Shown here: piece after piece, positions 22,037 to 24,844 of the stretch
Position numbering within the stretch: position 1 is the stretch's first letter
How the letters are laid out: each line of letters opens with the position of its first letter
Virus record (IMG/VR): IMGVR_UViG_3300037308_000217
Location: 1 to 64,000 of that record
Source of the DNA: a virus
Strand: one strand, 5' to 3'
DNA: 64,000 bases
Program-made: the position numbers and the translations under genes
The notes under the pieces: model-generated
What the model saw: only the letters and a program-made list of their open reading frames with translations
Told to the model about the DNA's origin: nothing
Database searches by the model: none

Positions 22037-24844
22037 CTAGATTTTCAGCGGTTTCTTCTCGGCCCAATTCGTTTCGGTGTACTCCACCGATGCGACAATC
22101 GGTGTCGGATTGAACTCGGGGTAGCTTTCCATCATCGCCTTAATCGCGCCCACCGACTCGACGATGTGGTCAGCCGGAATGTCGATCTGGATTTCATCGT
22201 GAACGGTGTTGACCAGCAGGATGGGCGAGCTGGTCGCCTTGGCCCACTTCCAGATCCGGACCAGGCTTTCCTTGGTCAGCTCAGCAGCAGTCCCTTGGAT
22301 CAACGAACCGATCGCCTGGCGCTCAGCGCGGCCGCGCTTCCAGTACGACAGCGAGCCCAGATCCGGAATGCGCCGCGGCCGGCCAAACAGGTTGAGGAAC
22401 TGGCAACCATTCAGCCGGCAGAACTCCCAAAAGTTTTTCCGCAGCTCCGCGATGCCGTGGTACTTCTGGAAAAACGTATTGAGGTATTTAGCCGCTTCAT
22501 CCACCGAGAGGCCCGCTTGCCGGGCAAACCCGGTCTCGGTCATGCAATAAGAATTACTGACGATCTTACCTGCTACAGTGAACCTGTGGCGGGGACCTGC
22601 GTCGAGGAGATCAAATACTCGCGTCTTTTTCGCCCCATGCGCTCGCTGGTATTGAGCAAATTTTCGGCTTGGGTGACCAACCTCAGATTCTCCGGAGAGT
22701 AGTGTCCCTCGTTGTCGATCCGTTCGAAAACCAAACCTTTGAAATCCGCATCCGGATACTTCTCCAGCGCCCACCGAATGAAATGCTCCCGCGATCTGAA
22801 AAGCACCTTGATCCCGCGCCCCTTGTACCGTTTCGATGAAATGTGAGTATCCCTCTCGCAACGCTGCACCATAGCATCGTATCGTCTCCCCAAGATGCCC
22901 GCCCTCCGATCGCCATACTTCCCCTGGCAAGTACAATTCCGAGATAGACCCCTCTTGACGTTGTCCAGAATTGCCCATTTTGTGATCCCGCAAACTACGC
23001 AGGTCATCTCGATAAAACGAGTCCTCCTCCCCTGGCGGCCAACCGGCATCCATTCCCATTTTCCGGTCAAACGCAGAGTACCCAATGGGAGTTTCGCCAA
23101 CCGCTCCAGTAGCAATTTTTCCGGAATATACCTGGGATGCGATTTTCCAGATCGGTACAAGGTCACCCCCCTCGGTGTAGACCTCATGCTCGGGGGTTGC
23201 TACCAGTCCGTCACACTCGATAACGTCACAAACCCCGCGGCATATCAAACCGGCGTGCCTCACCCAAGCTACCCCATCCCATAGCAAATGCCTATCCTTA
23301 ACCTGCTCGATAGGCACCAAGCCCTCATCGGTCAAGACAGACTGCCCTTCTGCAATGCACAAACCGAAATTCACAATTTTAGCCCGGCGCCGGTAGACCT
23401 TGTCATCGGACCCCCAGACCTCCATCGCCGTGCGGCTGTGGATGTCCCCGCCGGTCCGGTACACCTCCATCATCACCGGGTCGCGGCTGTAGAACGCGAG
23501 CACGCGCAGCTCGATCTGGCTGTAGTCGAAAAAGAACCGGGGCATCCGGGGGCCGCGCACAACGAACAGCCGCCGCACGCTGTAGGGGTCGATCCCCCCA
23601 TCGGCCAGGGGCTTGCCCGTGGCCTCCAGCGCGCGGTCGTTATCGTCCGAACTGAAATTCTGGAAGTTGGGGTTGCGGCAGCTCAGCCGGCCGGTATTCG
23701 TCCCGACCTGCTGGAAATCACCGTGCAGCATCCCATCGTGGCCGACGCGCGCCAGCAGGCTGCTGGTGTAGGTCGTGTCGATCTTGTGCGCCTCGCGCCA
23801 CTCCAGAATCTGCAACAGCACCGGCCAGGTCTTACCGAACTCGACCAGCACTTCTTCGTCCACCGCCAGCTTGTCCGCCAGCACCGCCGGCCGCCCCTCA
23901 TGGTTCGCAGCGCGCACCTCTTTTTGGCCGGCCTTGGTCAGCTTGGACAGCGGAACATTCAGGGTCTTGAGCAGGTAATCGCGCAGCTCGTCATCGCTGG
24001 CCAGGTTGAAAGGGAGCTGCATCTGCTTTTGCAGCTCGTCTTTCCGGAATCGCACGCGCTCGCTGAGCTGCTGGAGGTACACCAGGTCAACCGGCAGCCC
24101 GTTCTCCTCAGTCTCGTGCAGCACTCGGGTCAGGTCCATCTCGGTTTGCCACACGCGCGAGTAGGTGCGCGAGATGGCATGGCGGCCCTCATAGAACTGC
24201 CAGAGCCGCATCGCATAATCCACGTCGAAACAAGCGTACAAGCCCGCGACGTTGATGGGGACGTGGCTGTAGCCGACGCGCGACTTGTACTCGTCGAGCC
24301 CAGTGCCCATCGCCTTTGCGCCAGCCTCGACCCAGCGGTCCAGGCTGTGCTTGTTTTCCTTCGCCTGCGGGTCCCCCAGGTCCCGGGACGCCCGCTCCTC
24401 CAAGGTCGCCGAGTTGTTCTCGTCGTGAAACCTGGCCGCGATCATCGTGTCGTAGCGAGGCCCCAGGACCGCCCAGCGCTCCCTGGCAGCAAAATGCTCG
24501 TCGAACTTGATGTTGTGAGCGATCTTGAGCTGCTGGCTCCGGAACAGGTCGTTGACCGCCTGCCAGACCTGGTCCAGGGGCAGCTGGGGCTCACCGGTCA
24601 TGTGTCGGAAGGGGATGTACCAGCAGTGCGTTTCCCCTCCGGATGGCATCCAGCCCAGGGCAATCCCGCACGCTCGGGCATCCCGGTGCCAGGCCAGTCC
24701 GGAAGTCTCAAAGTCGAAGGCGAAAGCGGGAGCCGCGAGCAGCTCGGCCATGGCGGCCCGCAGCTGTTCCGGTGTCGTGACCAGCGCCTTACCGGGGGGG
24801 AAGGAAGTCGAGTAGGCGACCGCTTTTGCCTGAGCTGCCTGCAA
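22037..24844 (-). CDS. polA: Family-A DNA polymerase (3'-5' exonuclease plus polymerase domains) interrupted by an intein
   Basis: Exo motifs FDFETSGL, HNIKFD and YACFDVDY. Pol motif A is FFDYSQIELRVLA, motif B is RRRAKIVNFGL//SYCMTETGFARQ, and motif C is NTVHDEIQI. The TTG start at 24844 follows GGAGGGCTTTC. Confidence 0.9.
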   Translation of the reverse strand: MQAAQAKAVAYSTSFPPGKALVTTPEQLRAAMAELLAAPAFAFDFETSGLAWHRDARACGIALGWMPSGGETHCWYIPFRHMTGEPQLPLDQVWQAVNDLFRSQQLKIAHNIKFDEHFAARERWAVLGPRYDTMIAARFHDENNSATLEERASRDLGDPQAKENKHSLDRWVEAGAKAMGTGLDEYKSRVGYSHVPINVAGLYACFDVDYAMRLWQFYEGRHAISRTYSRVWQTEMDLTRVLHETEENGLPVDLVYLQQLSERVRFRKDELQKQMQLPFNLASDDELRDYLLKTLNVPLSKLTKAGQKEVRAANHEGRPAVLADKLAVDEEVLVEFGKTWPVLLQILEWREAHKIDTTYTSSLLARVGHDGMLHGDFQQVGTNTGRLSCRNPNFQNFSSDDNDRALEATGKPLADGGIDPYSVRRLFVVRGPRMPRFFFDYSQIELRVLAFYSRDPVMMEVYRTGGDIHSRTAMEVWGSDDKVYRRRAKIVNFGLCIAEGQSVLTDEGLVPIEQVKDRHLLWDGVAWVRHAGLICRGVCDVIECDGLVATPEHEVYTEGGDLVPIWKIASQVYSGKIATGAVGETPIGYSAFDRKMGMDAGWPPGEEDSFYRDDLRSLRDHKMGNSGQRQEGSISELYLPGEVWRSEGGHLGETIRCYGAALREGYSHFIETVQGARDQGAFQIAGAFHSVGAGEVSGCGFQRFGFRTDRQRGTLLSGESEVGHPSRKFAQYQRAHGAKKTRVFDLLDAGPRHRFTVAGKIVSNSYCMTETGFARQAGLSVDEAAKYLNTFFQKYHGIAELRKNFWEFCRLNGCQFLNLFGRPRRIPDLGSLSYWKRGRAERQAIGSLIQGTAAELTKESLVRIWKWAKATSSPILLVNTVHDEIQIDIPADHIVESVGAIKAMMESYPEFNPTPIVASVEYTETNWAEKKPLKI
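22553..23359 (-). mobile_element. Intein (269 codons, polymerase residues C496-N764) inserted in motif B
   Basis: Block A CIAEGQSVLTDEG, block B LVATPEHEVYT, block F RVFDLLDAGPRHRF, block G FTVAGKIVSN followed by +1 Ser. Removing it restores NFGL-SYCMTETGFARQ (compare [16 protein letters not shown]). Confidence 0.8.
22573..23187 (-). CDS. HNH homing endonuclease ORF nested inside the intein in a different reading frame
   Basis: 204 codons offset by 1 nt from the polymerase frame. Motifs: CVVCG...CTCQG, GRRYDAMVQRC...YKGRGIKV and ERIDNEGHYSPENLRLVTQAEN. Local GC is about 50-55 %. The true start is uncertain (weak RBS at 23187). Confidence 0.7.
   Translation of the reverse strand: MRSTPRGVTLYRSGKSHPRYIPEKLLLERLAKLPLGTLRLTGKWEWMPVGRQGRRTRFIEMTCVVCGITKWAILDNVKRGLSRNCTCQGKYGDRRAGILGRRYDAMVQRCERDTHISSKRYKGRGIKVLFRSREHFIRWALEKYPDADFKGLVFERIDNEGHYSPENLRLVTQAENLLNTSERMGRKRREYLISSTQVPATGSL

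Follow-up and report, generated by a model that had tools for sequence, protein, structure and literature searches.

An HNH-like endonuclease gene nested out of frame within a DNA polymerase intein of an environmental phage

The window analysed here is a stretch of 64,000 nucleotides of viral DNA, positions 1 to 64,000 of the IMG/VR record IMGVR_UViG_3300037308_000217. Its minus strand carries a gene for a family-A DNA polymerase (polA) that is interrupted within motif B by an intein. A second open reading frame (ORF), coding for an HNH-like homing-endonuclease protein, lies on the same strand of the same DNA in a different frame. The element is very probably a mobile "non-canonical" polA motif-B intein with the endonuclease gene nested out of frame, two proteins being encoded by one stretch of DNA. 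Its parts, in positions of the window, are the following.

22037..24844, minus strand: family-A DNA polymerase precursor ORF, 935 codons counted from the first possible start, with 3'-5' exonuclease and polymerase domains.
23360..24844, minus strand: N-extein, polA residues 1-495, ending ...RRRAKIVNFGL within motif B.
22553..23359, minus strand: intein in the polymerase frame, 269 codons, running from Cys1 through TPEH to VFDLLDAGPRHRFTVAGKIVSN and followed by Ser+1.
23096..23359, minus strand: Hint-N splicing half, intein residues 1 to about 88, with blocks A and B; TPEH at 23186..23197.
22670..23095, minus strand: polymerase-frame linker, intein residues about 89-230, rich in G, R, E and S, without a predicted fold and free of stop codons.
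22553..22669, minus strand: Hint-C splicing half with blocks F and G and the terminal Asn; it overlaps the 3' tail and the stop codon of the HNH-like ORF.
22037..22552, minus strand: C-extein, SYCMTETGFARQ... up to the stop codon; it restores motif B and carries motif C.
22573..23187, minus strand: HNH-like homing-endonuclease ORF, 204 codons plus TAG; the polymerase frame is its frame +2.
22651..23001, minus strand: conserved core of the HNH-like protein, with a CxxC...CxC zinc cluster, the RYDAMVQRC...YKGRGI motif and the beta-beta-alpha segment FERIDNEGHYSPENLRLVTQAENLLN.

The polymerase itself is readily recognized. In Pfam the ORF matches DNA_pol_A (2.1e-68), the match being split in two stretches, and DNA_pol_A_exo1 (3e-15), and among PHROG families it matches the DNA polymerase family PHROG 17 (3.5e-106). 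A blastn search of the polA gene against GenBank phages gave no match. With slashes at the two junctions, the product reads ...RRRAKIVNFGL / CIAEGQSVLT...ATPEHEVY...RVFDLLDAGPRHRFTVAGKIVSN / SYCMTETGFARQ... across the intein, and the intein-less motif-B site would consist of ...AAAATTGTGAATTTCGGTTTG joined to TCTTATTGCATGACC.... When residues 496-764 are removed, the remaining product (rrrakivnfgl/sycmtetgfarq) aligns without gaps to the Klenow fragment across the junction (E 4e-33). The removal restores the host motif NFGL/SY.M..G.ARQ, which indicates an in-frame insertion at a conserved host site.

The two ORFs form a same-strand pair in which the polymerase frame is the +2 frame of the 204-codon ORF, and a TAG closes the HNH-like frame five codons 5' of its ATG. 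The content of guanine plus cytosine (GC) is 0.52-0.55 over 22400-23300 and about 0.65 in the flanks. An earlier note, made from the letters of the window, had described this arrangement; its coordinates and frame statements for polA, for the second ORF and for the upstream TAG are all correct, and so is the local drop in GC that it reported. Its placing of an intein in motif B is borne out by the Klenow alignment and by the profile and fold comparisons of the Hint domain.

The Hint domain is not recognized by the standard family models. Pfam has no Hint match for the intein, its Hint models failing even at E <= 10, and no match for the polymerase-frame linker. A profile of Hint-N (105 amino acids) and Hint-C (42 amino acids), built from 21 loci with the same layout, matched nothing but inteins in the PDB, with a DnaE intein as the best match (3e-4). 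In an AlphaFold2 model of the 269-residue intein, the predicted local distance difference test (pLDDT) score is 86-98 over residues 1-80 (to about residue 85) and 76-93 over residues 231-269. It is below 50 over linker residues 90-229, where the alignment is shallow. A Foldseek comparison of this model with the PDB returned inteins as all of the top 40 or so matches, including NpuDnaE, gp41-1, Mtu RecA and Ssp DnaE/DnaB, with root-mean-square deviations of 2.4-2.7 A over about 88 columns. The earlier note had given the linker about 185 residues and no recognizable domain. The absence of a domain stands, and the length is closer to 140 residues, because Hint-N stays folded for about 30 residues after block B.

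The residues expected of a splicing domain are in place. The window intein has C1, T55-P-E-H58, VFDLLD, ...VSN and S+1. Over the 21 loci, the Hint columns T55, H58, D128, G133, P134, F138 and N147 are invariant and Cys1 is nearly so, with Cys, Ser or Thr at position +1. The penultimate residue of the window intein is Ser rather than His. DnaE inteins also end in ..ASN, so that a penultimate Ser is not disqualifying. Sequence and structural model together confirm that 22553..23359 is an intein inserted in polA motif B. That it splices is deduced from the conserved catalytic residues and from the position of the insert, which splits an essential site. Motif B is part of the active site of family-A polymerases, and for this reason an unspliced insert of 269 residues would be unlikely to be tolerated.

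The second ORF belongs to a protein family of its own. It matches HNH endonuclease families in PHROG (PHROG 374, 1.3e-22; a further one, 3.5e-18), and 84 homologues were found in a collection of 5.8 billion proteins, with 38-65 % identity and nearly all of 130-350 amino acids. The four cysteines of the zinc cluster (C63, C66, C85 and C87) are invariant in the family, as are N167, N176, N179, His115 and Cys110. The C-terminal segment of the family has the form F-D-R-x-D-N-x-G-x-Y-x-x-x-N-L-R-L-V-x-x-x-x-N-x-x-N. All family-invariant residues are retained in the window copy. Its AlphaFold2 model has a mean pLDDT of 87.5 and shows a beta-beta-alpha arrangement of two strands (152-156 and 168-172) and a subsequent helix (173-195). 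In BFVD the model matches, with E down to 1e-10, the folds of AP2-domain proteins and of putative HNH homing endonucleases. A distant relative occurs in a group I intron region in the endolysin gene of Staphylococcus phage Lacachita (hhalign 98.4 %). A tblastn search of GenBank phages returned distant relatives only, at no more than 38 % identity, and no cultured phage carrying the element. Judged by its sequence conservation and its predicted fold, the second ORF is a real gene.

How far the protein is a conventional HNH nuclease is less clear. The Pfam model HNH_3 stays below threshold for the window protein (E = 0.25; 11.5 bits against a cutoff of 24.8), aligning with its C-terminal half only, and reaches 0.0023 for the best family member. 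No Pfam family is found for the ORF at E <= 0.1, and hence no Endonuclease_7; the PHROG match to endonuclease VII is at 0.17. A PDB sequence search with the family profile gave spurious matches only. Arg156, in the F-D-R-I-D-N stretch, is invariant: all 43 of 43 aligned members have it, and so does the staphylococcal phage relative found in an intron. Its column is presumably the place of the catalytic His of HNH_3 (D-H), the placement following the HNH_3 consensus rather than a tool alignment. Because of this invariant Arg at the expected position of the His, the protein is called "HNH-like" here. The "clear HNH signature" of the earlier note thus holds at the level of PHROG and BFVD matches and not at that of HNH_3 and its His. 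The profile searches that the note had proposed for both frames ended in the same mixed way, Pfam finding no Hint domain and leaving HNH below threshold, and PHROG recognizing HNH.

Evidence for selection on the two frames comes from the stop codons that are missing. A stop in the +2 frame requires a T at the third position of an HNH-like codon, with the next codon starting with AA, AG or GA. The expected number of such stops was obtained by permuting synonymous codons within each HNH-like gene, which leaves both the protein and its codon usage unchanged. In 23 of 23 embedded genes no polymerase-frame stop is present, against 3.5-11.8 expected. The chance of having none is at most 0.013 per gene, and for most genes it is below 2e-4. 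For the window ORF, 10.2 stops are expected and none observed, and not one of 5000 permutations was free of stops. In the other alternative frame (+1) the observed stops are about as many as expected. Seven free-standing homologues have 8, 12, 12 and 32, 31, 8, 5 stops in the +2 frame.

The same rule can be read directly from the codons. In embedded genes, T is found at codon position 3 before AA, AG or GA in 0 of 774 cases, compared with 26.5 % in other contexts. In free-standing genes the corresponding values are 22 of 105 (21 %) and 24.6 %. Given the geometry of +2 stops, it follows that the polymerase frame is kept open purely by synonymous choices. Pairwise nucleotide divergence at HNH-like codon positions 1, 2 and 3 is 0.40, 0.31 and 0.59, and mean amino-acid identity over the same columns is 56 % in the HNH-like frame compared with 28 % in the polymerase frame. 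Selection clearly keeps both frames open, as the earlier note had argued from the length of the open off-frame. The protein-level constraint sits in the HNH-like frame, and the linker is constrained mainly to stay open.

A short region may depart from this division of labour. The last 31 or so codons of Hint-N (23096..23187) are also read in the HNH-like frame, and in this overlap both frames have conserved residues that come from the same bases. The Hint-frame "AAS" is also present in mini-inteins without an HNH gene, and the HNH-like-frame "HPR" is also present in free-standing copies. Both frames may therefore be functionally constrained here. The shared bases may also represent a compatibility that eased the nesting.

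The layout is not peculiar to the window. A polymerase frame at +2 that is open across the whole HNH-like gene was found in 24 divergent polA loci, namely the window, locus L007, 21 non-redundant IMG/VR loci from two scans, and locus L046. L007 is a contig from a different run, and its HNH-like protein is 59 % identical to that of the window. L046 comes from a genome scan, is binned with Gemmatimonadaceae and holds the closest relative of the window polA and intein. The polA ORFs of these loci have 688-1776 amino acids and very different backbones. The insertion points vary by up to about 4 residues (NFGL/C, NFG/C, NF/C and AKP/C...N/CNFGF). On the N side the loci share CIAEGQ.VLT...WDG..WV.H.G...ATP.H, and on the C side VYD..NAGP.HRF.....V.N followed by C, S or T.

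How many relatives are seen depends on the search. An exhaustive HMMER search with the polymerase-frame intein returned 2266 representatives at E <= 1e-3, 63 of them at <= 1e-30, and among the best 150 representatives (50 %-identity clusters) 100 have an alignment that passes through the polymerase-frame linker. With the same query, a word-indexed protein search gave 2 weak matches only. The Logan contig SRR12687343_439888 (L005) is identical to window positions 19573-23525, with 0 mismatches over 3953 nucleotides. It starts inside polA, and its gene caller gave the HNH-like ORF and a separate polA C-terminal fragment of 168 amino acids instead of the frame that reads through. For annotation this means that gene callers and word-indexed searches can miss a through-reading polymerase frame, two weak matches standing against thousands from the exhaustive search.

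A distant branch of HNH-like proteins (27-35 % identity) likewise occurs inside inteins of this Hint family in polymerases (L038, 408-3815; L041/L042, 1402-4485; L043, 1714-4698). In this branch the polymerase frame is the HNH-like frame +1 instead of +2, and the insertion site is ..GKV/C...HN/CVLGLG. The branch points to an independent nesting event or to a switch of frame. The same Hint family also occupies other sites in polymerases, for instance TGR/C (P0085, P0086, P0087 and others), and in many intein representatives a single polymerase holds this Hint domain in two or three copies. Some products of the family stop about 30 residues past block B or start at Hint-C. Such truncated products may be split inteins or "fractured genes".

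In the loci inspected, a stop codon within the Hint-N coding region closes the HNH-like frame no more than about 30 codons 5' of a start codon that is preceded by a Shine-Dalgarno-like motif. At least 17 of 23 loci have such a start codon (16 ATG; TTG in L018) with GAGG, AGGAG or AAGG 6-12 nucleotides upstream, mostly 9. In the window a comparable candidate site lies downstream of the ATG of the ORF.

23158..23173, minus strand: candidate internal translation start, with GAGG at 23170..23173, a spacing of 9 nucleotides and TTG at 23158..23160.

A start at this TTG (23160) would give (M)YRSGKSHPR, which agrees with the usual N-terminus of the family. A pattern scan found no promoter-like site on the strand of the gene, and within the element it found no site resembling a terminator. 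Of the possible routes of expression, internal initiation on the polA mRNA is the one that these sequences support best, and it is likelier than frameshifting.

The other end of the gene overlaps Hint block F. In many members the stop codon of the HNH-like ORF (TGA), as read from the codons, is embedded in the conserved (R)VYDI(L)N of Hint block F. Many members of the family end in ...STTS, ...STT or ...STI and then stop; tail and stop look like an overprint of this block-F sequence, which would explain why ...STTS recurs. At the same point the window reads Asp and not Asn, which makes its HNH-like ORF a few codons longer (region 22573-22640). About 25 of the 84 homologues carry the STTS-type signature at the C-terminus and are listed as "stand-alone" proteins. 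An STTS-type C-terminus can thus flag intein-embedded copies among proteins so listed.

Taken together, these features suggest the following model. Ribosomes translating polA would read through the endonuclease gene in the polymerase frame, producing a disordered linker of about 140 residues between Hint-N and Hint-C. The Hint domain would then fold and splice itself and the linker out, restoring NFGL-SY-M..G.ARQ. The endonuclease would be translated separately, from an internal start within the Hint-N coding sequence to a stop within Hint block F; separate translation is proposed because of the start codons and Shine-Dalgarno-like motifs of the homologues. The HNH-like gene would occupy the place that an in-frame endonuclease domain has in canonical inteins. 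Its product would cut intein-less polA alleles at motif B, leading to homing of the whole element. The overlap would persist by the synonymous rule, under which no endonuclease codon ending in T precedes a codon starting with AA, AG or GA.

Several points weigh against this model. Splicing, translation of the HNH-like protein and cleavage are all deduced from sequence and structural models. The low pLDDT of the linker is partly due to missing alignment depth, and the Logan contig, although identical, gives no independent confirmation, since window and contig may have come from one sample. The window ATG (23185..23187) has no Shine-Dalgarno-like motif upstream, in agreement with the poor ribosome-binding site seen by the earlier note, and the alternative TTG start is a guess. 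A Foldseek comparison of the HNH-like model with the PDB gave nothing significant. Finally, the family has an invariant Asp-Arg where Asp-His is expected, which makes nuclease activity by the standard mechanism uncertain.

The earlier note had offered a different route to the HNH-like protein, in which ribosomes slip by +1 from the intein frame on the A5 run at 23116-23120 and produce a Hint-N::HNH fusion; a +1 slip followed by a -1 slip would even yield a full intein. The +1 direction is geometrically right, the run is present in the window, and the window ATG lacks a Shine-Dalgarno-like motif. Against this, runs of five or more A occur in 5 of 20 homologous loci and at non-homologous positions, most loci have the start signals described above (typically ATG with GAGG or AGGAG about 9 nucleotides upstream), a stop closes the HNH-like frame shortly before these starts, and free-standing homologues of the same length exist. 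Moreover, if ribosomes left the polymerase frame, its specific protection from stops would be needless. Programmed frameshifting is thus a very unlikely explanation, and the slip site proposed in the note is not conserved among the homologues. An assembly or sequencing artefact, in which two compensating indels put an in-frame HNH domain out of frame, can be set aside almost entirely. Apart from the possible common origin of the window and the Logan contig, it has no more than general possibility on its side. The same frame relation recurs in 24 independently assembled loci that are 40-60 % divergent, and 100 representatives from the database show it as well. Only embedded copies avoid stops in this way, and no in-frame relative is known among the proteins searched.

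It is also conceivable, though improbable, that the HNH-like ORF of the window is a decaying relic and that a mini-intein with a long linker is all that still functions in this phage. The weak start-codon context and the absence of the canonical catalytic His fit such decay, and published models of the homing cycle expect the endonuclease to decay after fixation (bioRxiv 10.64898/2026.09.14.751524; bioRxiv 10.1101/2025.01.02.630785). However, the ORF is intact with every family-invariant residue, its AlphaFold2 model is confident, and the third codon position of its frame is the most variable. The change from His to Arg is found throughout the family, including intron-borne and free-standing relatives, and so is not a local lesion. 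There might, lastly, be no protein splicing at all, the insert being either a group I or group II intron with an HNH ORF or a tolerated in-frame loop. Distant HNH-like relatives do reside in group I introns, and the ShiLan insertion is a precedent for an in-frame HNH insertion without splicing (PMC11855218). Yet Rfam finds no intron in 22300-23600, the Hint fold is confidently predicted and matches solved inteins, and the nearly invariant Cys1, TxxH, the block-F Asp, the terminal Asn and the +1 Ser, Cys or Thr are conserved. With an insert that splits NFGL/SY.M, part of the polymerase active site, the absence of splicing is extremely unlikely.

The unusual Asp-Arg pair allows a further, rather speculative suggestion. 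The HNH-like family may cut DNA through a different active site, or may only bind motif B and recruit another nuclease ("collaborative homing"). The suggestion is made because the Asp-Arg is shared by embedded, free-standing and intron-borne members, together with the invariant Cys4 cluster, His115 and Cys110. The odds are well against it. If a non-conventional HNH-like protein did serve as a DNA-binding partner, the polA intein family would spread by a mechanism undescribed for inteins. The missing catalytic His thus leaves room for surprise.

Forms related to the element provide information about its origin. Both polA and other proteins contain mini-inteins of this Hint family, about 105-150 amino acids long and without HNH (P0087-P0092 and about ten more), which continue through the Hint-N stretch 23096..23187. 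Free-standing genes of the HNH-like family exist that have the same length as embedded ones. An HNH-like profile in frame with a Hint domain was found in none of 150 intein-bearing representatives and in none of the 84 proteins of the HNH family. The presence of mini-inteins and free-standing genes, together with the lack of an in-frame version, fits the invasion of a mini-intein. From these sequences, the most likely origin is that a free-standing endonuclease gene invaded a mini-intein, rather than that a frameshift occurred in a canonical intein. A homing function of the element has indirect support from the occurrence of the same unit, at sites shifted a little, in polA backbones that differ greatly, and from the polA fragments linked to five of the seven free-standing copies. 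Free-standing homologues are also found in bacterial genomes or metagenome-assembled genomes (Aminobacter, Micavibrio and others), some of them beside integrase and AlpA genes.

The free-standing copies are often accompanied by pieces of polA. A polA fragment of about 90-300 amino acids lies near 5 of 7 free-standing copies, adjacent in four and about 2 kilobases away in L006. The loci are L004 (3300-4540), L001 (4001-5346), L006 (1343-4591), L047 (2676-3522) and L048 (2636-3561). In L001, L004 and L006 the fragments have a common start, ..F(V)RD(I)LF.., and end at motif B with R..AK(AV), which is the intein insertion site. The fragment of L001 is on the opposite strand. In L047 and L048 there is only a shorter blast match to polA just upstream of the HNH-like gene. 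The fragments could be remnants of homing and co-conversion, or a reused module. They could also reflect the reverse direction, in which free-standing copies beside polA fragments are remnants of embedded ones.

Out-of-frame endonuclease genes in inteins have been described before, although the earlier note was not aware of a dual-frame nesting. An example is a cyanobacterial dnaX intein with a LAGLIDADG homing endonuclease gene in the +2 frame, reported to have a disordered linker in the host frame, omega values specific to the frame and, upstream of the ORF, a Shine-Dalgarno motif (bioRxiv 10.64898/2026.09.14.751524). As in the window family, the host frame encodes both Hint halves and, between them, a linker predicted with low confidence, and the same-strand +2 endonuclease is under purifying selection. 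Both cases also share the Shine-Dalgarno-like motif, coexisting mini-intein alleles and the proposal of a secondary mini-intein invasion as the origin. The dnaX case concerns a bacterial gene and LAGLIDADG, whereas the window has a phage polA motif B and an HNH_3-like beta-beta-alpha protein with a Cys4 cluster. The present analysis adds explicit statistics of stop avoidance against free-standing homologues. Two preprints (bioRxiv 10.1101/2025.01.02.630785; bioRxiv 10.64898/2026.09.14.751524) credit Gorbalenya 1998 ("Non-canonical inteins") with non-canonical endonuclease ORFs in the dnaX intein, and differ on whether the ORF is in an alternate frame or antisense.

A second example is found in actinophage inteins, some carrying in "frame 3" a gene like that of endonuclease VII, others carrying antisense endonuclease genes (bioRxiv 10.1101/2025.01.02.630785). 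Here too the endonuclease region is structureless in the host frame and the alternate-frame product folds, free-standing relatives exist, and an origin by invasion was proposed. The differences are that the endonuclease family of the window is not Endonuclease_7, and that the window family occurs in high-GC environmental phages, with its nearest relative binned with Gemmatimonadaceae.

The ShiLan insertion, in the DNA methylase of a mycobacteriophage, hides an HNH endonuclease that is out of frame (PMC11855218). It resembles the window element in having the HNH gene in an alternate frame of an insertion without host-frame stops. Unlike the window element, in which a complete Hint domain flanks the HNH-like gene, it has no Hint domain and is thought to stay in the protein as a loop. 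No ribosome-binding site was found for its HNH gene, and leaderless initiation was suggested, whereas most homologues of the window have ATG with GAGG or AGGAG.

Related arrangements are known in which the host frame is broken or the nuclease is in frame. In fractured genes (Dassa et al. 2009, PMC2677866, as cited in bioRxiv 10.1101/2025.01.02.630785), a free-standing gene for a VSR-like endonuclease separates the two halves of a split intein. To that extent they resemble the window element, in which an endonuclease of the free-standing type lies between Hint-N and Hint-C coding sequences, and they fit the order "splicing domain first, endonuclease invades later". They differ in that the host frame of the window is unbroken and its intein contiguous (cis-splicing). 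Within this Hint family, the counterpart of fractured genes may be P0085 and P0086, both of which stop shortly past Hint-N. Canonical inteins whose HNH domain is in frame were described by Dalgaard et al. 1997, as cited in bioRxiv 10.1101/2025.01.02.630785. Like these inteins, and like the HNH_3/AP2 endonucleases encoded in phage introns, the window element ties a nuclease of the HNH superfamily to a self-splicing element. It differs from canonical HNH inteins in its frame relationship and in the invariant Asp-Arg in place of the expected Asp-His.

A literature search found no description of an HNH-like gene lying out of frame within an intein of a family-A polymerase. As far as its sequence allows comparison, the element works like the published out-of-frame cases, and the polA/HNH-like family has apparently gone unnoticed. 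It adds a large and widespread family, with at least 100 50 %-identity clusters that include the linker, to a class known from a handful of cases. It also offers the cleanest signature so far of how such an overlap is maintained, by one synonymous rule and at no amino-acid cost to the endonuclease, and this rule suggests why the +2 relationship is favoured. With mini-intein, free-standing and embedded forms existing side by side, the family lends itself well to tests of the idea that endonuclease genes invade mini-inteins.

The polA gene is surrounded in the window by a minus-strand phage replication module that extends over 18871-29430 and includes the following genes.

18871-19989, minus strand: UvsX/RecA-like recombinase.
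27007-28023, minus strand: primase.
28027-29430, minus strand: DnaB-like helicase.

A second HNH endonuclease ORF, unrelated to the one in the intein, lies at 59998-60513 on the minus strand and encodes 171 amino acids (PHROG 15471, 1.2e-15). It sits in a patch of low GC (0.567) and adjoins a virion structural gene at 60557-61006. This ORF is probably a free-standing homing endonuclease.

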